Assembly: GCA_051294375.1 (NCBI GenBank) | Contig: CM119270.1 | Span: 14,730,046 to 14,794,045, forward strand | Length of the DNA stretch: 64,000 nt | From: Paraspadella gotoi | Lineage: Eukaryota > Animalia > Chaetognatha | Reading direction: 5' to 3' | In this document: positions 1,729-54,227 of the stretch, piece after piece | Layout: the number at the start of each line of letters is the position of its first letter | How positions within the stretch are numbered: position 1 is the stretch's first letter | Program-made: the position numbers and the translations under genes | The notes under the pieces: model-generated | The model's database searches: none | Told to the model about the DNA's origin: nothing | What the model saw: only the letters and a program-made list of their open reading frames with translations

Positions 1729-3993
1729 GCTTGGCAGGAAGTAGAGAACTTCCTCTACGGCGTCGTCGTCGACGGCGCTATCTCTCCGTTCGCCGGCGAC
1801 GCCGCCCCGGCAGCCGGCGCCGTCGCCGCCCCCAGCAGCCCCGACTCAACATCGGGCTCCAACGCGTCATCTTCGACGCCGTCGTCTTCACCCTCGGGAG
1901 CCGGTGGCGCCACCTTGGACGGTGTGGGCGCCGCGATGGAGGGCACCGTCGTCGGTAGCGCCGCTTCGAACAACGCCGCTCGTCTGCTGCCTCATCAGCC
2001 GAACTCGACCGACACTGAGAACATCATCAACGAGATCCTTGATCTCGACTTCATGCTGAACGACGATCAGCAACAGCAACAGCTGCAGCAGCTGCATCAA
2101 GCGGTCGCCCAACAGCCGCAGCATGACCTGTCGCAGCAGGAGACGCTTTTTCCGCTGTCAATGATGCTGCCACCGGCGCCGGCCCTGGACGCCGGCGTCG
2201 TCGTCGCCGGAGTCAAGAGGGAATCCGTGGCGCCGTTCTCGATGGAAGAAGAGGACGCGGCGTCGAAGGGCGCCTCTCCGGCCAAACGAGAGGCGCTTCT
2301 GCCGGATTTCCGGTCCGCTTTCGATCACAAAACCTCCTCTTCCTCATTCTCTTCATTCTCCTCTTCCTCTTTCTCCTCCCCCTTTTCTCCCTTCTCCTCC
2401 TCCTCTTCCTCCTCCGAGTTTCGACGCCTCGATTCCACGACGGAATCGACGACCGAATTTAAAATCGACGCCGCTTTCGTCGCCGACGCCGCGGCGACCT
2501 CGCTGATGTCCCCGACGCCGACGACGGCAAGCGCCGGCGCAAAGGACGTTCTCCTCGGTTTTTCCGGCGCCGAGACGATGAGTTTCGACTCTGGAGCGTT
2601 GTTCGCCGCGCCGCCGCCGCCGCCGCCGCACTCCATCGCGTCGTCAACGGCAACAACAACGACGCCCGCTGCTATAAACAAAGACTCGGACGAAAAGAAA
2701 CCCGAAGATCCTCTGCAGCAACTTCCAGAGCAGCAACACCAGCAACGGCAGCAGAAACTTTGCTCGGTCGTCAATCCTTTTGGCGACATGAAGCCGCCGC
2801 AATTTGTTCCACGTGATTCCTTCAGCGCATCCGGCGGCGGCGTCGTCGGCTGCGGCGCCAACGGGGAAAGCTTTCCCGTTTCCATGACAACGACCACGTC
2901 TCTGACCTCTTTTCAACAACTAGGTCCCGCTTCTTCCTACGGCGCAGCGACGAAGCAGCAATCGGCGCTGCAGCACCGACCTCAGCAGCAACAGCAACTG
3001 TCACCGCCCGCTTCTCCAGCGCAGGAGAATCTGTACAAACTCAACGGCGTCGCTTATTCCGTCGCCGGTCGCCTCCCTTCCTTACAGGGTCGATACCAAA
3101 CCTTCGGAGGCATGCAGCAGCAGCAAAGGCATCAGCTGCAGCTGCAACAGCATCAGCAACAAATGAGTCCGACCTCCATCCATTGTCCGACGCGGACGCC
3201 GCAAAACCTCTCGGGGCTTCGTCCGTCTCAGATGATTCCAGTTTCCGCAGCAAACAGTCAGCAACAGCAACAGCAAATTCAGCAGCTTCCCTCCTCTTCT
3301 TCATCCACCTCTTCCGCCTCGGCCTTGTCTCCCCACGCGGCCCTTCTGAACTTTGTCCACTCCACCGGTGGTCACGTGGTCAACGGCCGCGTTCAACATC
3401 AGCACTCTCAACAACTTCGTCATCCCCAGCAACAGCAGCAACATCCCCTTCACCATCGACACCTCGAAAACTCTCATCATCTGCCTCATCATCTCCATTC
3501 ACTCCATCCCCATCATCATCACCACCCCCACCACCCCTTGATGACTCCCCCCTCCTCCCCTCAACTCTCTGATCTCCTTCTGCCCATCGGGGTCGGCGTC
3601 CCGCCCGGAGGGGCCGCCGGCGCCCCTGGCGCCGCTACCCTGCTGCCCTTCGCTGCCGGCGATGGCTCCGCCGCGTCGGGCGCAGCGGCGCCGAAAAAGC
3701 GCGGACGAAGAACTTGGGGTCGGAAGCGGTCGACCACCCACACTTGCTCCCACCCGGGGTGCGCCAAGACCTACACCAAGTCCTCGCACCTCAAGGCGCA
3801 CCTCCGCACCCACACCGGCGAGAAACCTTACCACTGCAACTGGAAAGGCTGCGGCTGGAAATTTGCTCGTTCCGACGAACTCACTCGTCACTACAGAAAG
3901 CACACGGGCGACAGGCCGTTCCAGTGTCACCTGTGCGAGAGGGCCTTCTCCCGAAGCGACCATCTCAGTCTGCACATGAAGAGACACATTTGA
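1729..3993 (+). CDS. KLF1/2/4-like: Krueppel-like factor, KLF1/2/4 clade; large terminal coding exon (start codon in an unresolved upstream exon)
   Basis: Three C2H2 fingers ([31 protein letters not shown]...[14 protein letters not shown]...[13 protein letters not shown]) preceded by basic [12 protein letters not shown], as in KLF2/4. N-terminal EILDLDFML resembles KLF4 DLLDLDFIL; TPPSSP motif; polyQ/S/H tracts. Pyrimidine tract plus cag ending 1728 gives an in-frame phase-0 acceptor. Confidence 0.95.
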
Positions 3994-4665
3994 AAGGAGT
4001 GTGGGGTCGAGTGTGGATAAAGAAGTGTGGGCAGAGAAGTGTGGGCAGGATTAGGAAGAGGGAATGGGAAGGTCGTGGGTGAGGAAATCAAATTTTTTTA
4101 TTGTGGTTCGATATGTTTAAGGTTTCGGGATGGAGGAAAGACTACAGTGGTGTTCGTTTATAACCTATCTTTAAACAGTTTTTACTGTCTCGATGAAAAA
4201 AAAACCGCCGAGTGCCAATCGCGACTTTGCGAATCCTCGTTCAGTACAGAAAATAACATTGGGGATACTACTATTTTTCGTATTTTCGCGTTACTTACAT
4301 TGTATGTTATTATTGAATTGCTCCGCCATTAATAACCTTTTCATGTGCCTTAAAACAAAATTTGTTATAAAAAATGCAAATTTATCATATTTTTTTTTTC
4401 GAATATAATTACATGGTCCTGCGTATATGCTTTATTCTCGTGGTTTTTATTTGGTTGCTACTAAAAAGACAGAGAAAGTGGTTGCAAAACATGAAATAAA
4501 GAAAGACAAATGCGAATATTCCTCTGGACAAAAGCGAACTCCTTTAGAGTCAAATAAAAGTCTCATTAGGAGGCGCAGTTAAGGATCAAAACGACAAAAA
4601 TGGTTAAAAAATAAAAAATAAAAATCCTCCGAATGTCTGGTTGAAACTTGAAAGTTATTCGAAGC

Positions 4666-4763
<98 letters not shown>

Positions 4764-6852
4764 CAGCTCGTATAAATATTAAAGTAATTTTCTCACTTCG
4801 TGCTAGCTGCATAAATCACGTAAAAACATTATCTACTTTCAAAACAATTCAACTTGAGAACCTTTTGTTTTTTTCAACCGGGAATGTTGTTGATGAAATT
4901 AGTTGGTAGAGGACAGCAAATTGTAAAATTAGAAATAAACAAAAGTACAAAAAACTTCAAACCAGCGGCACTCAACTGCATAATTACTCAATTACATAAA
5001 TAAGATAATATATTTTGGTCTTGGTTATTTGGTTTGCGACCTGTTTAACGTATATAGGTTAAAATAAACAAAAATTTATCCTATTTATTCCACTTAGTTA
5101 ACATTTTAAGTATTTCGATCGATTTACGCTCACCGGAACCGAACCCGCGACGTTAAAGTCATCGTCGTCGTTGTCGTCGTCGTTGTCGTCGTCGCAGAAA
5201 TCCCTCGTCGGGACTTAATTCGCGCCTGAACCTTTTTTCTTCGCATGAATAATGAAGAAGATTTTTACGATTCCAAAGAAATCTCACCAGATGTCGCCTT
5301 CTTTGTTGTTGTAGTTGTCGTCGTCGTTGCTGCTGCAGTTGTATGGAAGAAAAACTTACTTAACTTATTTCATTACGTCTGTCGTTGAATATCTAAATAT
5401 GGTCCCTAACAACAAATACCCGATGATAATAAATTTAAAGACGAATTTTAACACAACGGTAATACAAGTTAAATTGAATAAACTCGAAAAAAAAATCACT
5501 GAAGGAAAAAAGTTAGGTCTTAGGATCACTCGTGACTTCTGAGTTCGTGGGCGGAGAAAAAAAAATTCTTAGATGCTGATAAAATTCCCTCGAGGACGAA
5601 AGGAGAAGAAAAACGAGACCCAGAAGAAGAAGAAGGAGGAGAAGAAGAAGTAGAAGGAGAAGAAGAAGAAGAAAGAAAGAAAATACTGATCTGGATGAAG
5701 GGGAAAAAAACGCATATTTGCTTGTTCACCAAAATATTATTCTCAATTTGTTGGGAGATTTTGTTATAAATCACTATTTAAATTTAAATAAATTATGAGA
5801 TGAGAATAGCAGAGAAAAAAAATCAATGAAGCTGAAAGTGAAAATTGAAAGTAATATATAATAAAGAAAAAAAAAGGATAAAAAGATTTTCCCCATATTA
5901 GAAAGAGAGATGATACGAAAAACAGAAGAGGTAAGTCAGGCGAATTAGAAGGTGAGAAAAAAAAATATGTTCGTAAAAAGGAGGAACAGGAGGAGAATGA
6001 AAGAAAAACGAGAAAAGAATTGAAAGAAAGAAAGTGAAAAAAAGAAAATACCAGTAGATAAACGCGAGGAGTGACAGTCGAAAAAAAATGGCTGCCTTGT
6101 TTGGCAAAAAAAAACATTTTTTTAATGCTTCTGCACTTTTTAAATATTTGAACATTTGATGTTTTGTGGGGAATGACGTCGGAGATGTCAAGAAATAAAT
6201 CAGAAAATAATTAACTACAAGGATGAGCTTATTTATTTTACTAAAAGATTAAGTTCTGTATTATTTTTTTATTAAATCGTTATTTATTTTAACCTTTGTT
6301 CAACATTTTTAAATATTATAAAATTATATATTTTTACCATTTAAATTCAGATAATTAAAAAAAATATACTTTACCACGATGCAATTTAAGACGAGACGCA
6401 TCCGGTTCGCTTTTTCTCTTTTTCTTTCGTTTCGCGAATCCGCGAGGTTTTGGGGTCAATCAGATTCAACTCACGCAAAAGACGGGGAAGAAAAAAAAAT
6501 GCGATATCGGGGCCTCGTTAAAAAAGCTTACGTTGTTGTTCCTCCTTTTTTTTCCGGTCGACTTTGTTTTCTCGATTGATTTTATCGTATTATTATTGAC
6601 ATTTTTGCAATTTACAAAATTCTTTCTCACGAACTTCACTTTATATTGTACTTATCTGCTTAAACTCGAATATTCTCATTCTTTATCAATTAATTATAAA
6701 TTTCGGAAGTTGTTGTTCTAATTTCATATTATCGACATCACCATGTATTAATATCATTATCAGCAAACTCTCTCTCTCTCTCTCTCTGAACAAGATATCT
6801 TGCACAAAACCAAAACTCTCTCCCTCATTTTCAAACAAAAGACGTTCTTCTC

Positions 6853-7269
6853 TCAAGGCGCTAAACAAGCGGTTATCCCTTGATCAGTATAATTGTGGCA
6901 GACGAGTCCCGGGCAGCAAGGATGCTTCTCGTGGCAATATTGGCGGCATCCCGAGCAGGCGTGTTTTTTGGAGAAGTCGAGAGGGGCCCAACAAAAACCG
7001 GAATCGCAATTGAGTCCCGCACAGCATTCTCCTGGGGAATTGCACCGATAGCCACATTTCTTGCAAGGCGTGTCCGCTTCAGTAAGGTTGGCGGTGGCGC
7101 TGCTGTCGTTATTCGCGACGGCCTAATCGTGAAACGCAACCCAAGTCGACGATGCGATTTCACCCAACAAAATGTGAAACGTAATTCTCGAAAACAAATT
7201 GACCTGATTTTCCAGATTCCTTGAGACGACGAAAGTCGCGATCGAGATTATCAGCAATAAAATCTTCAT
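6853..7269 (-). CDS. Secreted double-knottin (ICK-like) cysteine-rich peptide, 111 aa; exons 7269-7204 and 7122-6853
   Basis: Manual translation: MKILLLIISIATFVVSRNLENQ|AVANNDSSATANLTEADTP-CKKCGYRCNSPGECCAGLNCDSGFC-WAPLDFSKKHA-CSGCRQYCHEKHPCCPGLVCHNYTDQGITAC-LAP*. Hydrophobic signal peptide, 81-nt gt..ag intron (phase 0), two repeats of C-x2-C-x3-C-x5-CC-x4-C-xn-C. Confidence 0.85.
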
Positions 7270-7516
7270 TTTCGTTGCGAATAAAAAAAAGGAGCCAAAA
7301 AAAAAAAAATACAAATAATCGTCTGACTAATTCTGTATCGCGATTGATGAATCCTACGCGTTTAAAGTAAGTATCGAATATAAATCAATGTTTATTCGAA
7401 TCGAGAAACGTCTTTGAAATAGGTCATTTGCGCTTGGCTGTCAAAATAACTATATCAACCTTAAGCTCCGCTCTCTCTCTCTCTCTCTCTCTCTCTTCTT
7501 CTCTCCTCTCTCTCTC

Positions 7517-7564
<48 letters not shown>

Positions 7565-9105
7565 TTCTCTCTCTTAATATCTACTTCGTCGCGAGGCGAC
7601 GACACGATCACCTCCTACTTTTTACGCTTCTAACTTCTCCACCTTTCGGCCTTTCTCTCTCCTCCTCCTCCTCCTCTCCTCCTCCACCTCCTCCTCCTCT
7701 TCCCCCCCGACCGAATCCCGAATCCAATCATCGAACGTCTTCTTCCATCGCCGCTGGGATTTCAACCTCGTCCACCGCATCTTCTCTTAATGGCCTGGAA
7801 GTGGAACAGTGGACGACATGGCGGAATGGCATGGGGGGCATGGTCGAATGGAATAAAGGGGGCATGGTTGAATAAAAGGACACGGTGAGGTCGAAGAGGA
7901 AGATGAAGAGAAGAAGTGAAAGAGGCATGGCTGGAATGGAAGAAGCAGGGCTGGAATGGAAGTATGTAAATGTAATGTAATGAATGTAAATCACCAGTAA
8001 GAAGAAGTACGACTGTATGTCGTAGTAATTATTGCGGCGTTATCATGGGGAATGGAAAGCAAGGCGCAGATGGGTTAGTCTTGCGCAAACGAAAAGATAA
8101 ATACAAGGGGAAAACAAATTATTAGATGAGCATAACATAAAATGTTTTTTTTCAGGTGTGAAGTTTGATGGAAACGGTTAAATTCATGATTAACCGATAG
8201 TCGATGTTCGAAGCTCGGAAAATCATGAGGTAACACCCGTTGATTAAGTACTACTTAATAAGTAGGCAATAAAATTTCCTTTTATTTTGAATTCATTTCA
8301 TTTTTTTTTTCTCATATGATTTTAGTTCGCCATTGCCAGGACAGATAATCTAGTAAAATACGATGAAACTTTCACATTTTAATATAAACAAGTTAAGTCC
8401 TAATTTCGCTTGGAATTGTGACCAGCGGATAATTTTTATAATAGAATGAAATCTAACAAAAATGGCACAAAGATAGTAAGCTACTAAAACTAAAGATTTG
8501 TTTTTTGGGAAATGTATTGACTAATGTACAGGCAATAGTAAAAATGTAAAAAAGATAATTTTTTTTTCTTTCCAAAGGTACACAAACCTTTCAGTGCGAG
8601 GATTACTTAATAATTGTGTTCAGAGATCGGATGGAATCATAGATTAACAATCGCCGACTTGGAATGACGTTTGTGAATGAGCGATAAGATTCGCTTTCGT
8701 TAATGACGCGGAGATCAAAGGAAATTGAGAAGGGAAGAAGGGGAAAGATGAAGGAAAGGAGAGGGGCAAAAAAGGAAGGAAATTGAGAAGGGAAGGAAAG
8801 GAAAGATGAAGGGAAGAAGAGGGGGCAAAAAAGGAAGGAAATTGAGAGGGGAAGGAAGGATGAGTTAAGAGGGTAAGCAAGTAGGTAGGGATTTATTCAG
8901 TAAGGGGGAAGGGTGGAAATGTGAATGGAAAAGAAAGGAAAAGAAGAGAAGAAAAGAAAAGAAAAAAAAAGAAAAGAAAAGAGAAAAGAAGGAGTATCGA
9001 GCGAAAAATCGTCCTGCGGACTAATTAATATAACGGCCTCACAAATTCTTGGTTGTCATTTGCTCCCGGCTTCATTGTTCTCGCACTCAATTTCAATCGT
9101 TTCGT

Positions 9106-9151
<46 letters not shown>

Positions 9152-9849
9152 TCTCTCTCTTCTCTCTCTCTCTCTCTCTTTCTCTTTGAAAGTCGTCGCC
9201 TTCTTCGTCCTCCTTTCATCTTCCACCGTCTCTTAATTAGAATGTCATTTCCAAGAAAAGCTTTTCAATCAGGAGTTGGCGCTCGGGACTTCGAGAGCTT
9301 GGGAGAAAAAAGAAAGAGAAAAATGTAAAAAAAAGAAAGAAAAAAGAAAGAAAGCTGATTTATCCCTTTCCTTTCTTCGTTGAAATTTTCTTCTTTTTTT
9401 TTTAATCGTGTAATTTAATCTTTAAACTTCTTCAAAATTGAGTTTATTTTTGTTCGCTTCTCAGTTTTCTGCTAAATTTCAACGAATTAAATTTTCCAGC
9501 TCAACTTTTTCTTCATTACTTCGCCCCAAATGACAAAAGTTATATTAGGAACAAAAATTGTTGGTTCTTAACATGAAATTAGCATCTGCCTCCTTATTAT
9601 GCACAGGCTATGGTAGATACTTACAAAATTATTTCATAGCTACATTATGCTAGTGTTCTATCAAGACCTTCTTACATTCAACTGTATTAACTCCCACATT
9701 ACTTGGCTTCTTTATAAATGAGGTAGTAAGAGTAATAATCTCTCAACTGTTTTAATAAGATAAACGAAAAGGAAACTTAAAGTTCATATTGGGGATTAAA
9801 AGCTTGCAGAAACCTGTTATGTTATTATCTTGCAAGTGTGATGGAGGCC

Positions 9850-9936
9850 TTAAACCACCAAAGCCTGTCCAAAGTCAGGGACAAGATAGCTTATTTATTA
9901 AATGGATGGATAATTTTTATATTGGTTGTACCAATT
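9850..9936 (+). repeat. ~85-bp dispersed repeat; inverted copy at ~19828-19913
   Basis: aaaccaccaaagcctgtccaaagtcagggacaagatagcttatttattaaatg...ccaatt is the near reverse complement of aattggtataacc...caagctatcttgcccctgactttggacaggctttggtggttt. Confidence 0.85.
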
Positions 9937-10619
9937 TCATCGCATAAAATACGGGAAGCCTGATATTATGAAATTAATTCTAACAAAGAAAAATTAAACA
10001 TTCTTATTACGTTATCGTTTCGTCGTTTCTTTCATATTTTTCACATCATCGGTTTTCCTCTCGCTTTCTTAGTTGCTTCGCGAGTACTCGGGGTAAGTCA
10101 CTTTTCTGAAAATCCTAAAACTAAGACGGAATTTCGATGCCGTGCATGTCATAAATACAAGAGTTAAGATGGTTTTTTAGTCATGTCATGCCACGTAATC
10201 TCATGCACATGAAAATAAAGTCACGGCGGAGCAACACATTGGAATCACCGTTCTTGTTTATTAGTTATCCACTTTCCTTTCCTCCTTTTTTCGCTCTTCT
10301 TTCCATCTTCAGACGATAATTAATCACTCCCACTTTTTTTTTCGTCAATGCCTTTCTCGCGAAAATCCGACTTCAGGCGAAAAAAAAAAAAGCTTTTTTT
10401 TTCTGCTCCTCGTTTTCCGCTCAACAAGAAGGAAGTTTGGGGAAAAAAAAGTCGAGCGAGTTCTTTTTTCGAGCCGAGGAAGCATTGAGCAGAATCTTAG
10501 TTTAACGTGAGAAAATGTTTTGAGCGCAGAAAAAAACCTGTGAGAAACCTGTATCACGAATTCATAAAATGACTCAATGCAATCGTAGTCGGGCATTGCA
10601 ACGCATGCACCCCGCATAT

Positions 10620-10775
10620 GAGATGGGTCATTGACTAATACCATCAGCTCATGACCTTTAGGTACCGGTATCAATCCCGAATGGAACTCACCCTGCGGGT
10701 CGAGTGAAAACTACCCTGGGGGCCTAGAAAATCCTACATCCTGGATCCTGTGACCCGTTCAATCGCTGTTAGTGC
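10620..10775 (+). mobile_element. Diverged, possibly tRNA-derived SINE-like repeat; related copy at ~46230-46365
   Basis: ttgactaataccatcagctcatgacctttaggtaccggtatcaatcc aligns with ttgagtaacaccataactcatgaccataaggtacctgtatcgattc; both are followed by acccgttc-atcgctg-like tails; degenerate A/B-box-like spacing. Confidence 0.5.
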
Positions 10776-11989
10776 GAGTGTCGCGGTTTTGAAAAGTCGG
10801 TTAATTTCATTGTCAAATATATTTTTTGGCCGGAAAATATATTTTAATATGTAATATAACTTCCCTAGGACTGAATGAAAAGATTATTTCTTAAGGGCAG
10901 ACAATTATTTAATACAAATACTTCCAAAAGAGGTTGTTTCCAACTTTTTTCACCTCTTTTTGATCAAGTTAAATTATTATTATTAGTCAAATTATTATTA
11001 ATATTATATGTCTGACATGACATTTTTTATCAGATTTAGGGCAAAAAGTAATAAAAAGAACCGGGAATTAGTCAAAAAAAGTGTAGATATGAAAAATATA
11101 AAAGAGAAAGAAACATTTTTTTGATAATTCATTTTATTTTGCATGGAACTCTTGTATGAATCACAAGAGGCCAAAGTTTCTCGAGATATATATATATACC
11201 TAAATTTGATTTTTCGATTTTTACATTAAAATACCGAAAAAAACCTGGAAAGTAACCGCGACTATTTTTTTTTCATCATGGTAGTACACACATTCCTTGA
11301 ATTCATTTATTTAAATGCTTTCCTCTCGAGGTCGCCATAATTATTTTTTCCGCCGACAACGACGACGCCCATTATACGCCTTGAATCTCCCCCGTAAATC
11401 TTCCATTGCCTTTCTCGGTGCCCTTCATTGCGCATTGCCAGGTTTTCTAGCCAGACGTCAGAAATGATTCTATTTTATCTTTCGTGCCAATTTCTTTTCG
11501 GCTTTTTTTTTTTTTTGCTTTCGCTATGGTTAATCGCTGAGTTCCAGGGTTTCGAACCTTTAGTTTCTAGACGTTTGAAATCCGAAATAATTGGCGATTG
11601 ACTTCGAGGTTGATTTTCACCCGGAATCTCTGTCCATCGTCTTTCATCGGCGCCGGAAACCCGGAGTCTCTCTTCGGCGGTCTCACTTCACGCTGTGTCT
11701 TTACGAAAGCTTATTAGGGGTCTAATCTTTCACGAGAAACGAGTCGGCGCCTTCTCTTCTCTCCTTCTCTTTTCTCCTTTTCTTCTCTCCTTCTCTTCTC
11801 TCCTTCTCTTCTCTCCTTCTCTTTTCTCCTTCTCTTCTCTCCTTCTTTTCTCTCCTTCTCTCTCTCGTTCTTTTCTCTCCTTCTCTTCTCTCCTTCTTAT
11901 CTTTCTCCTCTCTAGTCAAATTTTTCTTCGTTCTCTTTTAAATCTACTCTTATCGATCTCTTCTTCTTTTCTAGTAAAAGCCTTCGCCC

Positions 11990-12430
11990 TGATTGGTCAT
12001 TGATATCGCAACTCCATCACCGATTGGTTATCGATGGGTGATTAGGCAATCAGGGGTCAAATTATGAATCAATCTTTTTTTATATTTTCTTTCTAAATTT
12101 TCTAAATTTATAGAAATCTACAGAGGGTTATTTTATCTTTTTCCTTCCTAGGTATTACTAATTAAATATCCAAATTTTATTTTAGCAATTGATCCTTATA
12201 TCTTAAAAAAATTGGGGATTTCAAGGTGTTTTTATAATTAGAATTGTGTATATCCTATTATAAACTAAAGCGTTTAAATATTTTGCCATTCAAGGCGCCC
12301 CTGAGCTTTTTTTTCCTTTTCGACTTCTCTCTGATTGGCTAAATCTCCCGGCGAAGCTTGGTTTCCAAATGTCCTCTCCTATCTGATGACGTGAGTACAT
12401 CGAACACTCACGCGACGCCCGATTGGCAGA
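11990..12430 (+). promoter_or_regulatory. Candidate promoter: four ATTGG (inverted CCAAT) boxes plus a CRE-like TGACGTGA, upstream of the mGluR-like gene
   Basis: ATTGG at ~11992, 12023, 12334 and 12422; TGACGTGA at 12387; followed by a GC-rich, (GA)n-containing segment. The ATG-containing mGluR exon has an acceptor at 18033, so an upstream 5' exon is required. Confidence 0.35.
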
Positions 12431-12684
12431 GCAGGGCAGGCGCTCGCGCGCGCGTCTCTCTCTACCGGAAACGGGAAGGCGAGAGAGAGAGAGAGCCGTC
12501 TCTCTCGCGCGACGCGAGGAAAACTTGAGGCGCCTTCCTAGGACGACGACGACGACGACGATGATGAGGACGAAGAAGACGACAACGACGACGAACACGC
12601 CGGGGGACGATAGAAATCGAGACCTATTCTCCGCGACGACAACGACGACGATGCTGACATCACTAGATGACGACGAGAATAACA

Positions 12685-12719
<35 letters not shown>

Positions 12720-13115
12720 GCCATCGGTGGACGTTATACGTCACCATCGCCGGATGCCAGAGAGGAAGGAATTCCGAGGATTTGCCAAGAAACGACAATA
12801 ACGGAGAAGAAAAAAAAAAGAGAGGCGATTTTAAAAGAGAGGAAGTAAAAGAAGATAAAAAAATAACTTACCTTCTGGATTTGAAGAAAATACTCGATTT
12901 TAAATCAACGACAAAAAAAGAAGACTAAATTTGGATACAAAACCGAGGTTTTTTTTTTTCACTCTCTTTTATATTTTCAATATTTACATTTAATACATTT
13001 AATTAACACAAAAAAAATGATAAATTTGACAAAAGAATTCGCGGAAAATCGATATAAATTTTGGATTTAAACTAATTCTTTTTCGATCTTATCGGAAATC
13101 GATGATAAAAAAGAA

Positions 13116-13159
<44 letters not shown>

Positions 13160-13891
13160 ATTTTTTGAGAAATTTGATTTTTCCAGAGTTTTGTCCTTAA
13201 ATTATTTTTCGTTTTAAACGAAGTTAGTTTTAATTTCATTTGAATTTGAATCTTGACGGACAATTCTTGATTGAAGTTTGACTTCCGAATTTTTCTATGG
13301 TCAGTTGGTGGGTGTTATGTTCGACAAATTCATACTTTTTAAACGACAAATGGCCCTTGCTATAGTAGGCTGTAAGTGACTTTAATTCAACAGTAAAGTG
13401 GGAACAACAAACATGCTGATTGATTGACCGACTGATCAAGATACGAGTGCTGAAAGTGAATATCCCAACCGTATTTAGAACTGTGATCCGGAAACGATAT
13501 GAATATCATACTGCATCTCACACGACTTGAAAGTTGGGAGCCCAACCCAACCCTTCGAAAACGAAGGTCGAGTTTGCTACATCATAGCAGATCACAAGAT
13601 GAGGCACTCTTACATTAATTAATCATACATTAATTAATTAATACATTAATTAATCATACGATCAAATTTCGATAGCAATCACAAAGACCTAGTGAAAAAT
13701 TGACGTGGTCATAGCTAACATTGTCAACAATGACAAGCACGACGAACATTGTCATCGCCAAACGATCGACCAAACGACAAAAGAGTTCCGGTCGTTCGCA
13801 TGGAGTCGATTGCGTCGTCGTCCATAGAATGCGTGACAGTGACGAGTTTTTAATATCAGCCTTTCTTTTCTTTCTTTCTTTTTTCTTTCTG

Positions 13892-13942
<51 letters not shown>

Positions 13943-14018
13943 GTCTTTCTTTCTTTCTTTCTTTCTATCTTTTTTTTTCTACCGTATTCAATATTCATTT
14001 ATATTTTTTTAAATTAAT

Positions 14019-14121
<103 letters not shown>

Positions 14122-14948
14122 TTTTCCTTATACATTTCTCTTTTATTTATTTTTACCTCTTTTTTTGTCTCGTTTTCCTTCTTTATTCTTAAACTTTTTT
14201 TTTGCTACCCGATCAATATTCTTTCCATTGTACGAGTTTCTGAAGGAGTTTCTTTCTTTATTTGACATCTACTTTTTATAAAGAACAGTGATCAGGGATC
14301 ATGAACGAATACGACTGATGTTTGTCTGTCTTTTCACAAAGGTACGAAATATCATTTCAGGAAGTACTATCCTTTTTCGAATCATTGTTACTAATAAACT
14401 TTCGTTCTGAAAAACGTTCAAACAAAACTTAAGTATTATACGCGTTAAGCTACTTAATTCTTTGTCATATCTTGGAGTTATCGCCATTAAATAATTATTA
14501 TTCAATATCCACGTATAAAACTAAATTATTCTAGTGTGAGATATTAATTTTCAAAAAACTAGAATTAATGTTTACTGGTTCAAGATTAATTGTAAACAGT
14601 TTCCAGATTTTCCATGTGCGATTTCTGAGAAATGCTTAAAAATAGTTTATTTCGTAGAGTAAAGAGTTCCATCCGTCGAAGCTCATAACCCAGTCACAAA
14701 TGTTTGCAAAGAAACCTTTCAAGGGACGACGACGACGACGACGACGACAAACGACATTTCCCTCGTTGACGATTGACGGATTCTGGAATGACATGAAAAT
14801 GTTTGCAGCAACAGCGACGATGATTTCGTTATCCCGTTAACCAAATTCCTCATTTCATTCAAATTCAATTTTGTTTTGTCAAAATCAGGTCCGAATAAAA
14901 TGATGTTTTGGGTAATCGACCGATAGAGAGCTATCGACTTTGGGTTCT

Positions 14949-15057
<109 letters not shown>

Positions 15058-15251
15058 ACACACAGTTTATTTTCTCATGGATCAATGATCATTTCTTATT
15101 AAAAAATTTCAAATTCGTAAATCTCTCGCTCTTCCCTTCTCTCTTCTCCTCTCTCTCTCTCTCTCCCTCTCTCCCTCTCCTCTCCCCCCTCCTCTCCCTC
15201 CTCCTCTCCTCTCTCTCTCTCTCTCTCTCTCCCTCTCTCCTCTCTCCTCTC

Positions 15252-15290
<39 letters not shown>

Positions 15291-16613
15291 ACCCAGTGAT
15301 ACCCAAGCTTTCCTATTCCTTCGGAACCAAAAAAAAAAAAAAAGTCGGAGCAAATGGACGGATCAATTATCGGCGTCGCTCTCACCCTCGTTTGTCACGA
15401 AAAAGGGGGGCGGGATTCCGGCGCCGCTTCGAGGGAAGCGGCGCAGCTTACTCCGCCACCGCCGCCGCCGCCTCCGACGCTAACTCTTCCGTCTCCATCG
15501 TTCACGTCGTCGCCGCCGACTCCGCCGCTGCCGACTTCGCCGCCGCCGACTCCGCATCTGCCGACTTCGCCGCCTCGGACTCCGCCGCTGCCGTCCTCGC
15601 CGCCGCCTCTGCTGAACCCATCATTGTCCCGTCCAAGATCGGAGGGCATAACGAATTCGTGTGACAACGACAACGACGACAACAACGGACCAACGTCGAG
15701 ACCAGCGACGACAACAAAGTCGACGACGACGACGTGTTCATAAATCATTCGTGTATGAAAAGGAAAAAGGGCCTCCCTTTCTCGACCTCCTTCCACCCCC
15801 CACGCCCACCTTAATTAACCCCTCCTTCCTTTCCCCCCTCCTTTTCTCTCACCCACCTCACCCCCTCACGACGGAAAGTATCCCAACGGGTGAAACCGCC
15901 AGATGTGAAAATGACAAATAACGCAAATTGAGAAACCGTTGTATTCGGCCAAGAAAAAATTCCAAATTGCGAGTGAAATCTTTGAAAAAAAAAGAAAAGA
16001 AATATTTAAGAAAATGGAAAACTAGAAAAGGTTGAAATACAACCTGAGCAGTTAGTAGTAGCTAATGGAAGAATCGAATCGAACACCTTATCGCAAATTC
16101 ATCGATCCATATTCGTCCAATAAAAAATTTCGAAGTGAAAAAAGGGAAATATAAAGAATTCATGGTATGATTCTTAGTTTCATAGATTCATGGTTTTATT
16201 CATCATATTCATCGCTTAGAATTCGTCTTCCTCGATTAAAATAAAAATTCAGTCGCTTTGTGCTGCGTCGGCTACGGAATTTGAGATCAAAAGCGAAATG
16301 AACCGACGAACTAATAAATTATTTTAAAAATGTTTTTTTAAAAAAATGCGAACGAATGGAAAATGGCAGACGCGCGTTGCCTGCCATCTAACGGAATTTT
16401 TTTTCGTGACCCAAAAATAAAATGAACAACGGATTAAAAATGAACGGAAATAAAAATAACATAAAACGCAAAAAATAAAAATAAAAAAAAACCCTGACTA
16501 AGATGAAAAACTTGCTTTAAATTTTATAAAAAAAAAAAAGATTTAAAAACGAAAATCCAAAGTCCATTAAGCGATTAACGGTTTTCCCCCCACGTCGCCG
16601 ACAGGCGCATAAT

Positions 16614-16672
<59 letters not shown>

Positions 16673-17919
16673 GAGCATTAACAATAAAAAATATAAAAAA
16701 GCCTCTGAAAAATGCGGAAAATGTGGCGCCGTTGGATCGAAGCGTCAAAGCGGAAATCCGGAAGTGGCGCTCGGCGACCCGAAGCGACGACGACGACGAC
16801 GACGACGAGGACGACGAAACCCAAATATGGAAAGGGGAGCTTTGGATACAAAATAGCGTGTGAGTTTCGATGTCGTCGTTTTTATGACTCGGAAGAACCC
16901 GAACCGCCTTTTTTGTTTTGAAGGTTAGATCTTGTTTTGCCCTCCTTTGTTTTTCTTACTCTTTTTCCTCCGACTTTTCTCTCGTTTCTTTTCTTTTTTT
17001 TTTATTCTTTCTTTTCCTTCCCTTCGAAGGCTTCGATGTTTATTTTTTTGTTCGTACCTTTTACACGTTTAATACCTCTCCTATTTCTTTTCCTTCTTTC
17101 CTCCCTTTCTTCGCACCTTATTTCCTTTCTCTCTCCACTATTTATTTTCTTCGTCCTTTTCTTTTTTCTCTTCCTTCTCTCCTTACCATTTCTTTGCCCA
17201 TCCTTTCTTCCCTTCCTCCTCCCCTTGCAACCCTTTCCTTTCTTATTCCTCTCCCTTTCCTTTCCTTCTCTTTCCGTTCTATTAACAATGGCGACTCTCA
17301 CGACTCGGTGAAAACCTTCCCGATTTCTTAACGGTTCCCTTATCACGCGACTGGGAATTCGTTCTTCGACTCGAAGTCGACCCGATTCTCTGCTGCGCGC
17401 ATTTTTTTTCCCCGCGCATTTGTGCGCGCATATGTGCCAGCGATTGTGCGAGCGATTGTGCGAGCATTGCTTTCGCTCAAATCGGTTGTCAGGTTTTTGT
17501 TAATAACGCGATCTTGCGCGTTTTTGTTGTTTGAGTTCTTGTTTATTTCCAATATAAATATTTTTTATCTCGCGTTCCGAATAGCGCGCGAGTGAATTAT
17601 ATCTCTTTGGAAATATCGTCATTCACCGTCGAGCGAACACATCATGGGTTTTTCACAATTCTATTGACTATTGTTAAAAACATATAGATAAAAAATTTAA
17701 GCTAACTATTTTTTCTCATTTAACATTATTAATTTCCCGCTCGCGCTCGCGTTTGTGCGCGTTGAAAGAAAAAAAAAAACGCGAATTAGATTTTTTACGT
17801 TTATTTTGTCGAGTGAAAAATATTATTCATTTTTTTCTGTTTTTAAAACAACAATTTTTCTGGCAAATGAGTTTTATAGACCCTCATTTTGTACCGCAAG
17901 GCTTTGATCGTCATTCTAA

Positions 17920-18012
<93 letters not shown>

Positions 18013-18061
18013 GCTTCAACCTCTCTCTTTCAGGATCTCCGATCTCATCGACGCGTCAAAT

Positions 18062-49725
<31,664 letters not shown>

Positions 49726-50898
49726 GTAAGTGATTTAGGAGCCTGGGGATTAATGGGCAGAGTGGATCGGAAAGTGTCGAACGAGAGAGATCTTCAAGTT
49801 CCTCGGAATTTCGCGGACGAATTTTCTTCGGGTGGAAAACCCGGGAGAAAGGATGGAGCAGATGTGATAGTATAGATGTACAGTAGTTCAGGAGAACGAT
49901 ATGTTAATTAGTAAAACATTTCAATATGTCAATACCTTTACCTTCTTCACTGGTATAATGAGCATTAACTCTTAGAATGAGGCAATTTTTTTGTGGGTCG
50001 CAATTAGTTCTGTACCAACGACTATGAATTGTCCAAAATACTAGTTCGTGGTTTTGCCAATTTCACGTAGCACCTGCGGCACCTGTAGTACAGGTAGTAC
50101 AGGTAGTACAGTACAGGTAGTACAGGCTGTACATCAGATCTCGCTTCTGTCTTCAGCAATTAAGCCACATATTTCGGCGGGAGAGGGCGTGGGCGGCGAT
50201 GAACCAGAAATCGGCGACATTCATTAGCGAAACTTGTTCCGCACTGACAGTGACAGCTGACGATCGATCAATGGTGTTTTTCCTCGCGTGACGATTCGAA
50301 AAAAAGAACATTTTTTTCTTCTTTTTTTTCAATGAGCGAAAAAAAGAAAATCTGGGAAGAAAGAACGAAAGAATGAAAGAATGAAATTCCTTTCTTATTC
50401 GATAATCGATAAATATCTTGACTGAATTGTATTGTGTAGAATTCATAATGTTCGAGTCTTTGATTCGAATATTCATCTGTTTTTTTTTTTTTATATCATT
50501 CGTGCAGAATTAATTCGACATCCGGATGGTTCTCGCCCTTTACTATATCTCTGTCCGTTTCGCTATCTCTCTCTTTCTCACTCTCTCAACTGGAGACTTC
50601 TAGGAATTTTTTTTTACTTGTAGTTTCACGTCAAATCTCATTTGAAATGCTCTCGAACTCGAGGGTTTCCCTCTACTACCCAACCGATTCGGCCGTAGTA
50701 ATGGCCCTTTCAAGGAAATGTATTTTCGTTTTCTTTGTAAATTAGTTGAAGCATTTCTTCGGTGCGCAAACGAATTCTCCGTTGTAGAAACATTTTTCGT
50801 CATTACGAGAGTTCGTACGAAGAAGCGTGGATTTTTGAAAAGCCTTAAGTAGAGAGGATGAGAGAGGGGGAGGAAATGCGTGGAGCGGAAAAACGTCG

Positions 50899-51624: not shown

Positions 51625-54227
51625 TCACTTTGTCGAGCAGACCGACGGCTTCGTTCCCGGAATTTCGTCACAAACGAGTTTGCGAAGATCTTCGTTGGCG
51701 CTGAATACAAAAAAGTGAAAAACATATTTCGTGAAATTCACATCAAAGATTCTTCACAGTTGCCAAGAAAAAAAATAAGTATGCTTTTCTAGCTCAACGA
51801 AAGTCTTACGACCAAAGAAGCAAAAAAAAGTAAACGAATATGAAATAACCCATAAAATGCCTAAAAGTACCAACTGAAAATGAAAGCTCGCTAATTATTT
51901 AAACTCACTTGAAGTTATTTTCTGGTCCTTTTCGATTATTGACGTAGATCCACGGTACGAAAGCGTATTTCAACTGAAGCGATCACGACAGAGGGAAAAA
52001 AGCTAGTAAGTAATGAAAGGCAAATGCTACATTAAAAACATACAAAATTACATAATACATATAATAAAAATAAGACGAGGACGGAAATAATTTATTGTTT
52101 AGTCACTTTTGATGTTTTTGATTTTGTTCAGAAGTTGTCAGTTTTGGTCGTTTAGATTTTTTATGCCGTTTTGAGTTTTCGTTCATTTGTTATGGCTTTA
52201 TATTGTTTCTTTATTTCTTTGTTTCTTATATCTTTGTTTTGTTTGGTTTTTATCATTTGTATTTGCGGTTTTGGCGTCGTTGCTCTGACTCACCTTTGGC
52301 GTTTGCAACGCAATCTGGTGTTGAAACCCGTTGCCCTCATTTCCCGAGACGCATTCTGTTGGGAATGATTAAAGCAATGAAATGGTAATGTTTTTTGTAC
52401 GAATTAATGAATGAATGAATGAATTCATTGATGAAAGGATAAATGGAATTCAGCTAAACGTCGAACTAACGACGAAAACAAAGTTAAAATAGAAGGGACG
52501 ACACCGATTTTAAAATACTAAGACAACAGCAATTATAACTACGTAAATGGGACGACCAAGTCAACAACTAAAATTGAAACTAACCGGAAATCCTGTTCCA
52601 GTCGAGGTCATTTTTGAAGGCGCAGTCTTGAGCGTCGCTGACCGAGTCTCTCGACGCGTCCATTTGGCAGAAGACAAAGGGAAGTGACTCACTCGTGTTT
52701 CTGATAACGAATATCATATAATAAATGTTTGATATTAAATATTAAATATTAAATATTAAAATGATTACTTCGTTTCCATGCGATTATCATTTGAGGAGCG
52801 TTGGTAAACAAAAAATTTAAAAATTTTAATATCTGAATCGTGAATACTGAATATAGTTTTGAAAAAATTAATTTTCTAATGAAAATCGCACGACAAGCTT
52901 TAAGTATAATCCAATCTCGCGTTTTACAATCGCTCTACTGACAAATTAATTAACTCAAAGCCCCTTGACAAGACCCACTTGTAAATATTGAGTGCGCAAG
53001 AGGCAATGAGATTTCCCTGGCACTCGTGGGCGCGGTGTTGACACCGGAAGGTCCAACGTCCGGTCGAGGGTACGTACGTCTCCGACGCTTTGCCGTACGG
53101 AAAAAGCCGGATTGTCACGAAGTCCTATTGAAGAGCGCGACGAGAAATGGGGGAGGTGGGTTGGGTTAGAAGGAATAAAGTGAGGCGTTTTAAGTTTGAG
53201 TTTAAATTATTTCATCAACCTGTCTTTTGATTGGTGAAACTCCCATGAAACTCACCGCCAAGTCTTCCCACGTAGGTTTCAACTGCTTGGCGATGAAATG
53301 CTTGCTGTCTGGACAATCGACCTCGTAGAAAACCGATATTTCAGCTTTCTGAGCTGTCCTAATAAAAGTCGTAAATTTATTCGCGTGATATAAATAAATA
53401 AAAGCGGTAGGTGTTGCATTATTTATACACATATATATATATATATAATTGAAGTATCAGTAAGACACTGAAACTTACAGACAGACAGATTAACTAACAC
53501 ATCTTCGACATCAATCTTTTGCTTTTATGGTTATATGGTTTTATTACCGCAATTTTTTACGTCAGTTTACTGCGAATTTGATATAAACTCACCCATAAAA
53601 CTGTCGAGACTCACCCGCTGAGCAAAGCGTCGAGGTTCGTCTGCTGGGATCTATCAACTGATGGATGTGGGAAGAGATGGGAATAGTTGGAAGAAAATGG
53701 GAAGAGATGGGAATAGATGAGAAGAGATGGGAGGAAGTGGGAAAAGATGAGAAGAGATAGGAGGAAGTGGGAAGAGATGAGAAAAGATGGGAGGAAGTGT
53801 AAAGAGATGAGAATAGATGGGAGGAAGCGGGAAGAGATGAGAAGAGATGGGAAGAAGTGAGAAGAGATAAGAAGAGATGGGAGGAAGTGTAAAGAGATGG
53901 GAAGAGATGAGAATAGTTGGAAAAAAGTGGAAAGAGATGGGAAGAGATGAGAAAAGATGGGAGGAAGTGGGAAGAAATGTGAAGAGACGGGAAGAAGAGG
54001 GAAGAGATGGGAAGAGATGAGAAGAGATGGGAGGAAGTGGGAAGAGATGAGAAAAGATGGGAGGAAGTGGGAAGAGTGGGACGTGTGAGGAAAAGAGTAA
54101 AAGAGGAAGGAAGAGAGGGAGGAAAAAAGAAAATGTTAAACGCTTTAAAGTTATATTTAGATCTCATGACAATACCAGAAAAAAGGGTCGCCATGACGAC
54201 GAAGAATAATCCGTGAAGCGTCTTCAT
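51625..54227 (-). CDS. GILT: GILT (gamma-interferon-inducible lysosomal thiol reductase)-like paralogue 2, CXXS type; exons 54227-54176, 53657-53615, 53358-53256, 53124-52979, 52700-52585, 52355-52294, 51973-51909, 51700-51625
   Basis: Signal MKTLHGLFFVVMATLFS; AEISVFYEVDCPDSKHFIAKQLKPTW; IRLFPYGKA; GILT signature variant FRCQHRAHECQGNLIASC; LPFVFC; FVPWIYVN; LRKLVCDEIPGTKPSVC*. All junctions GT-AG and phase-consistent. Confidence 0.93.
53660..54078. repeat. Purine-rich 10/30-bp minisatellite in GILT-2 intron 1
   Basis: gaagagatgg/gaggaagtgg/gaagagatga periodicity; it generates the spurious 212-aa ORF. Confidence 0.9.

Follow-up and report, generated by a model that had tools for sequence, protein, structure and literature searches.

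Double-knot peptides, in which two inhibitor cystine knot (ICK) domains stand in tandem on one chain, have been described in spiders (DkTx, Hi1a and CpTx-1; PMC6262176, PMC13172734, bioRxiv 10.1101/485722) and in a remipede (Xt3a, or xibalbin-3; PMC9950431, PMC11288129). In the sections of these papers on which we draw, the spider and remipede double knots are presented as independently folded knots on a linker. Tandem knots are not confined to venom, since non-venomous mussels have them. In the mussel MgCRP-I family, 16 of the 67 sequences are multi-domain and have all their modules together in a single exon; when two members with one domain each were made synthetically, they displayed no cytotoxic, insecticidal or antimicrobial activity according to excerpts of that report (PMC4558851); multi-CRP-I peptides are reported only in Mytilida, as far as the excerpted text of PMC4558851 and PMC10138031 goes. 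Another arrangement is found in CRD1 of Dkk4, where ICK subdomains are packed and cross-tethered within one domain, as outlined in part of PMC6078440.

Here we describe a gene located in a stretch of 64,000 nucleotides, the whole of which was analysed and is referred to as the window. The predicted layout of its product is a putative signal peptide, as judged from hydropathy only, followed by tandem homologous disulfide-rich domains. Our preferred reading, to which we assign a probability of about 0.4, is that the spliced gene encodes a secreted, glycosylated mini-protein whose two knots would be locked together by a Cys45-Cys81 disulfide, and which would serve as an extracellular defence or binding protein.

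Gene structure and splicing

The gene occupies 7269-6853 on the minus strand, where two exons encode a product of 111 residues. Coding exon 1 (7204..7269; 66 nt, 22 codons, ATG at 7269) is separated from coding exon 2 (6853..7122; 270 nt, comprising 89 codons and a TGA stop ending at 6853) by an 81-nt, phase 0 intron with GT..AG ends (7123..7203). The intron's final TAG is an in-frame stop. A preliminary description of this DNA had proposed a two-exon gene whose Cys-rich exon is hidden behind that acceptor, and both the coordinates and the translation agree with it. Exon 2 alone carries the rest of the spacer, both knots and the linker, and the last Cys of domain 2 sits three residues before the stop codon.

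The 7204/7122 junction, proposed in the same description as a check on the gene model, is present in public sequence runs. Seven runs were listed, five of them with part of the region; none is RNA on record and all are guessed to be RNA, and four of the seven (X1-X4) were examined. The exact junction, with the 81 bases between minus-strand GT..AG ends skipped, occurs in two of these four presumed RNA runs, which belong to two separate studies. The contigs that cross it have 106 letters (X1) and 26 letters (X4) on the shorter side and also cover exon 1; the exon 2 contigs of X2 and X3 end at 7110 and 7122, short of the junction. Eighteen frame-keeping GT/GC..AG intron pairs can be drawn, and the contigs contain only 7204/7122 and one shifted joint, seen in X4 alone at low depth (18.5 vs 3,073).

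Exon 2 is covered in all four runs from 6853 to at least 7110, and the X1 and X2 contigs reproduce it letter for letter. In X3, the only contig has one additional base within the linker's run of A, and this insertion would put domain 2 out of frame. The same insertion is a minority in X4 (433 of a depth of 14,296) and does not occur in X1 and X2; we read it as homopolymer slippage, the alternative being an allele. The word depth of exon 2 is ~2,900-15,800 in X4 vs ~7-42 in X1-X3, depth being a poor measure of expression, and the flanks of the gene are without cover in X1-X4, which proves nothing by itself. One X3 contig reaches 6701 and delimits a probable 3' UTR at 6701..6852 on the minus strand. 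The letters at its end are absent from the genomic sequence and read as poly(A) on the minus strand. This hints only weakly at the 3' end of the transcript, given that contigs cannot fix RNA ends. Near-identical sequence to 6796-7308 is found in runs of three studies under three organism names, reflecting either naming differences or the presence of the animal as prey, parasite or contaminant.

Several other features of the window are described here in their own right. A single-ORF zinc-finger gene of the KLF1/2/4 type at 1936-3993 (+) encodes 685 aa, which is long for the group, with runs of Gln, Ser and His. In the zinc-finger region, identity is 92-96% with proteins of brachiopods, molluscs and annelids (96% for brachiopod and mollusc), 90-93% with those of echinoderms and 86% with a lobster protein over a shorter stretch; the N-terminal part gave no significant match among the 204 proteins compared. 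In a tree of 21 rows the gene is unplaced, being drawn beside lobster and echinoderms without marked support. At 49338-49730 (+), an exon resembling metabotropic glutamate receptors contains an apparent insertion of ~60 residues, poly-Asp followed by an Arg-rich, furin-site-like run, at a loop that has ~15 residues in mGluR7. A tandem duplication of ~12 kb (9106-20765 and 20843-33368; 92-97% identity, N gaps at the borders) is either a genuine segmental duplication or the result of two haplotypes having been assembled one after the other; within the duplicated block lies a minisatellite-like array of ~60-nt units (18426-18654 and 30759-31306) whose length differs between the copies. A local duplication of 88-94% identity (39157-40587 and 40599-41458) includes a glutamate-receptor exon, the first copy being out of frame relative to the second. 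A GILT thiol reductase exon (52927-53124, minus strand; PF03227, E 3.8e-11) lies ~46 kb from the knottin gene. The KLF-type gene, the receptor-like gene and the GILT exon mark the DNA as that of an invertebrate bilaterian. Across the window as a whole, the observed/expected ratio of CpG is 1.25, which suggests that DNA methylation is low, and ~2,500 bases are AG microsatellites.

The precursor and its two predicted knots

The Kyte-Doolittle window mean is 2.3-3.4 across the first ten windows of the precursor. Hydropathy and a cleavage-rule reading indicate that residues 1-16 (7269-7222) are likely a signal peptide and the product likely secreted, with cleavage placed putatively after Ser16; the rest of exon 1 is the start of the spacer. 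The acidic Asn/Ser/Thr/Ala spacer (residues 17-41; exon 2 part 7066..7122, minus strand) is 25 aa long with a net charge of -3, carries N-glycosylation sequons at N27 and N34, and has R17 as the sole basic residue before Cys42. The signal-like leader, the NDS/NLT spacer, the two Cys-rich tandem domains and the 11-aa linker had all been accurately described beforehand. The description of the spacer as pro-like, however, is doubtful without a basic residue between R17 and Cys42. Spider and cone-snail knottin precursors are usually cut at a basic propeptide site, and because no such site is present here, the spacer may stay as a glycosylated tail. A third sequon, NYT at residue 99, adds to the two noted earlier and falls inside loop 4 of domain 2. 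The chain from residue 42 has a mass of 7.6 kDa and a net charge of +2, vs a net charge of -1 from residue 17; domain 1 is at +1 and domain 2, with three His, at 0. Together the linker and domain 2 hold four His.

Fourteen Cys fall into two blocks of seven (residues 42, 45, 49, 55, 56, 61, 66 and 78, 81, 85, 91, 92, 97, 108), with spacings of 2-3-5-0-4-4 and 2-3-5-0-4-10 around the linker of 11. Domain 1 comprises residues 42-66 (6991..7065) and domain 2 residues 78-108 (6865..6957), the latter with the N99 sequon in its long fourth loop; the linker between them (6958..6990, likewise on the minus strand) contains a Lys-Lys pair that could be cleavable. According to part of PMC9228390, ICK peptides obey the spacing rule C-x(4-6)-C-x(4-9)-CC-x(2-10)-C-x(3-14)-C. 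Both domains comply with this rule (x6, x5, CC, x4, and x4 or x10), each with an extra Cys in loop 1. Across all six frames of the window, a strict ICK pattern matched twice, each time within exon 2, and it gave no match in any of 100 shuffles of 500-base blocks.

To the sequence pattern we add predicted structures. The 72-residue two-domain part was modelled by AlphaFold2 with no alignment, giving a mean pLDDT of 69 and a pTM of 0.42. Domain 1 reached a pLDDT of 81-88 over model residues 1-30, the linker fell below 50, and the low pTM implies no confident prediction of the mutual arrangement of the domains; predicted as a two-chain complex, domains 1 and 2 scored 0.03 (mark 0.34), which counts neither for nor against contact between them. 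Between domain 1 and spider or cone-snail ICK peptides, superpositions extend over 29-34 residues, in most cases with an rmsd of 1.1-2.7 A, and Z goes up to 3.0; examples are hainantoxin-I (1.1 A, 29 residues, Z 2.6) and psalmotoxin-1 (1.3 A, 32 residues, Z 3.0). For this domain, Z 2 was reached by 32 of 151 chains. When domain 2 is folded by itself, its mean pLDDT is 75.8 and its best match is J-atracotoxin-Hv1c (Z 3.4 and TM 0.65, with an rmsd of 1.8 A for 34 residues). Among 48,161 chains, 15 reached Z 2 with domain 2; every one of them is a disulfide-rich peptide from venom or from horseshoe-crab defence, and we take 14 of them to be ICK peptides. Structural scores are low throughout, with Z at most 3.4 in any comparison and no Foldseek match with E below 0.001. 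Such scores are expected for domains of 30 residues, and sharing a fold says nothing about function. The expectation of two ICK-like domains was borne out to the extent that both predicted models, as small beta-hairpin folds, superpose with these low scores but consistently on solved knottins and that a non-knot fold was not returned. We regard both predicted domains as very probably ICK.

Searches for relatives, with exon 2 or its parts as queries, returned no full-length match to a described family in protein, metagenome or viral collections. The word-indexed search of 5.8 billion clustered proteins, in the size range of 48-156 aa, yielded no candidate relative, and an exact look-up in the protein collection found neither the exon 2 sequence nor the KLF protein. 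A HMMER scan of 1.84 billion representatives gave three matches, rejected as long repeat proteins that matched via many stretches without the knot pattern. Of 77 candidate stretches in the metagenome scan, three passed; these were likewise dismissed, as short chance matches or a GC-rich bacterial Cys-repeat protein; the contig stretch L002:2109-2849, at 76% GC, contains many short CC-containing Cys repeats that mimic knottin spacing and is a chance match. None of the four viral contig candidates passed. The best ESM Atlas scores were 0.82 and 0.85, below the 0.9 mark and with recognition under 2300, and these are leads only; for a UPF0506 flatworm cluster, which scored 0.78, a literature listing offered no information on its Cys. 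The Pfam scan of exon 2 gave sub-threshold matches only (Dickkopf_N, Conotoxin, Toxin_12, Stig1 and Tachystatin_A), with 13.7 bits vs a cut-off of 21 for Toxin_12, 14.5 vs 25.1 for Conotoxin and 9.2 vs 25 for Tachystatin_A. Searches of the open-access literature, with excerpts of PMC9885460 among the texts covered, yielded no tandem ICK peptide with a spare Cys per domain or with an extra inter-domain disulfide; the papers on SCREP, xibalbin and CRP-I have supplementary sequence tables that could hold one.

Spare cysteines and competing readings

In each block the first Cys takes ICK position I and the extra Cys is the third residue of loop 1. The alignment register and the aligned ranges place these spare residues at Cys45 of domain 1 (7054..7056) and at the equivalent Cys81 of domain 2 (6946..6948), both on the minus strand. 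The two domains align gap-free over 22 residues, starting at Cys I and ending shortly after Cys V; six of the 22 are Cys in both, the others match at 2 of 16 positions, and the non-Cys codon bases at 15 of 48. The identical loop-1 register, despite so few other matches, upholds the earlier observation of a seventh Cys at the same position in each domain. Because of this low similarity in residues and codon bases, the duplication inside the exon is taken to be old. That the seventh Cys has been kept in both copies modestly suggests selection, the odds for neutral retention or independent gain being roughly 1 in 8 to 1 in 16.

Judged from the sequence, an intra-chain Cys45-Cys81 bond has in our estimate an even chance, and such a lock would be the likeliest use of the spare Cys, with inter-chain linkage as its main rival. 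Since the Cys total is even, an intra-chain bond would leave no free thiol; free thiols hinder secretion. The spare position in loop 1 is presumably surface-exposed and near the stretch that follows Cys VI; in domain 1 this stretch is where the linker starts, and from this presumed closeness the 11-residue linker should be long enough for Cys45 and Cys81 to meet. By the same presumed geometry, a lock through the loop-1 Cys would likely set the knots face to face and not hold two binding heads apart, so an inter-domain lock and bivalent binding may pull against each other; the label bivalent, used for this protein in the preliminary description, is borrowed by analogy from DkTx and Hi1a. Odd Cys counts need not mean a lock. 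In the portions of the sources drawn on here, they are not rare in venom transcripts (one tarantula set has them in 15 of its 65 mature sequences; PMC9228390), with a seven-Cys pholcid peptide and a seven-Cys calcin-like sequence as further examples (PMC7682650, PMC9228390, PMC5198561).

In the preferred reading, the precursor would be exported and its signal peptide removed, the acidic spacer would be retained as a glycosylated tail, and each domain would fold as an ICK with the same pairing of knot Cys, the III-VI disulfide threading the ring. The fourteen Cys would form seven disulfides, six within the knots and one between them, and the locked knots would make one compact unit, a stable single ligand for an extracellular protein or a microbial surface. 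As to its origin, an ancestral single 7-Cys knot may have dimerised through its spare thiol and then been duplicated inside one exon, and the duplication would have turned the inter-chain bond of the dimer into an intra-chain bond. For the product, a defence or binding role is somewhat favoured over a structural one.

The spare Cys may instead link separate chains, as disulfide dimers or longer chains, or as an anchor to mucus, cuticle or cement, in which case the product would be a structural or surface-coating glycoprotein. A polymer would need two spare thiols per chain, as found here, and the three sequons, the Ser/Thr/Asn tail and the near-neutral charge are more in keeping with a matrix or mucus protein than with a channel toxin; secreted proteins with odd Cys numbers have also been proposed to dimerise or to join partners, as stated in part of PMC5198561. 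However, the partner thiol belongs to the same chain and is tethered only 36 residues away, which should favour intra-chain closure in the ER, and no structural knottin polymer was found in searches of the open-access literature; we consider the chain-linking role unlikely, at roughly one chance in four. A bivalent venom or mucus neurotoxin like DkTx, Hi1a and Xt3a, with two knots on two ion-channel sites, is a slightly poorer prospect still. It would share the tandem-ICK layout with both knots in the last exon, a weak sequence match to the tarantula channel toxin TRTX-Tp1a (E 0.037) and a superposition of the two-domain model on Xt3a (Z 2.4, rmsd 8.5 A over 60 residues); Xt3a likewise keeps a disordered N-terminal tail (PMC9950431) and ICK toxins occur in nemertean mucus (PMC10674772), each by a partial account. 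The toxin reading nevertheless remains weak, given the lack of a basic processing site, the near-neutral knots and the three sequons, one of them within loop 4 of knot 2, and given Toxin_12 and Conotoxin scores under the Pfam cut-offs. Moreover, tblastn found no second copy of the gene within the 64-kb window, whereas toxin genes often cluster. The spare-Cys position is often Trp or Phe in aligned tarantula toxins, which we take to be part of their binding patch.

Two further readings appear improbable. The CxxC that opens each domain and the four His of linker and domain 2 could bind metal or act as redox sites, the disulfides then not forming two canonical knots, and Cys spacing alone can pull single-sequence models towards an ICK. 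Yet the leader and the sequons point to an oxidising secretory route, an odd Cys count per domain would remain even if the CxxC closed on itself, and in both models the match to ICK peptides has the first Cys as Cys I, all of which renders such a role quite improbable. Equally remote, if not a shade more so, is an endogenous modulator of signalling akin to Dickkopf or colipase, in which the two Cys clusters form one CRD-like domain. Dickkopf_N is the best Pfam match (E 0.0055), CRD1 of Dkk4 the best match among solved-structure sequences (E 0.0075), and CRD2 of Dkk1 the top structural match of the two-domain model (Z 3.4). The Pfam match, however, has 17.4 bits against a cut-off of 25, the structural match has an rmsd of 7.5 A, there is no second CRD, and the alignment with Dkk needs a gap beside the CxxC and spans only part of each domain. 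Dkk CRDs have ten Cys and five disulfides, vs fourteen Cys here. The weak Dickkopf matches are understandable because CRD1 of Dkk4 is itself a ten-Cys domain of two ICK-like subdomains.

In its fullest form, the locked-knot reading is that of a natural, covalently locked double knottin, face to face, which derives from a duplicated disulfide-linked homodimer and founds an undescribed peptide family, in an invertebrate lineage that is thinly represented in protein databases; we hold this only tentatively, as something rather less than an even bet. The described double knots are independent domains whose geometry is set by the peptide linker. If the proposal is correct, double-knot geometry would here be fixed in a new manner, by a seventh disulfide that joins equivalent positions, and the gene would exemplify a covalent dimer that became a single chain via intra-exon duplication. 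Should the spare thiols join chains instead, a knottin used as a cross-linking unit would also be unusual; if the protein is neither locked nor a cross-linker, it would be another orphan tandem knottin, like the mussel multi-CRP-I peptides.

Comparison with described families

The relevant PDB entries are those of DkTx (6cuc), Hi1a (2n8f), Xt3a (7rz3) and Dkk4 (5o57). Like DkTx, Hi1a, the Hc1a family, CpTx-1 and Xt3a, the present protein has two tandem ICK domains, as predicted, and a short linker, and both knots lie in one exon, as the mature peptide does in Hc1a-type spider toxins according to part of PMC13172734. The disordered N-terminal tail of Xt3a is comparable with the retained spacer tail proposed here. 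By the same partial account (PMC9950431), xibalbin-3 domains have three disulfides each, whereas a seventh Cys is present in each domain here; the bond reported to stabilise the Xt3a linker joins a linker-flanking Cys to domain 2, and we read it as part of that knot and not as an extra lock. Unlike the double-knot venom toxins, the present protein has three sequons, no basic pro-site and no significant sequence match to them. The best double-knot sequence matches were obtained with single domains, Xt3a at E 3.5 and 5.4 and Hi1a at E 4.6, and neither of the two is among the matches of whole exon 2 to solved-structure sequences at E up to 10. Single-domain ICK peptides such as J-atracotoxin-Hv1c, hainantoxin-I and tachystatin A/B share the framework C-x6-C-x5-CC-x4-C-xn-C and, at an rmsd of ~1-3 A over ~30 residues, the predicted fold, but none of the aligned examples shown has a Cys three residues after Cys I.

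The mussel multi-MgCRP-I peptides are similar in that they are secreted (a prediction in the present case), carry 2-4 C-C-CC-C-C modules in one exon and come from a non-venomous invertebrate (PMC4558851, PMC10138031). From the portions of these reports drawn on here, CRP-I modules have six Cys, are 2-4 residues apart and have a last loop of 3-5, whereas the present protein has seven Cys per domain, a linker of 11 and a last loop of 10 in domain 2. Likewise, the CRP-I pro-region of ~15 residues ends in KR or RR, and nothing of the kind lies between R17 and Cys42. With Dkk4 CRD1 (PF04706, colipase fold), the protein has in common two duplicated ICK-like subdomains in a small disulfide-rich unit; the Dkk CRD, however, is part of a two-CRD Wnt regulator, as described in part of PMC6078440, whereas here two 7-Cys units stand alone. 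By the features tested, the protein is knottin-like with a double-knot layout and lies outside the described double-knot, CRP-I and Dickkopf families, and its unusual point is a 7+7 Cys framework kept across an old duplication.
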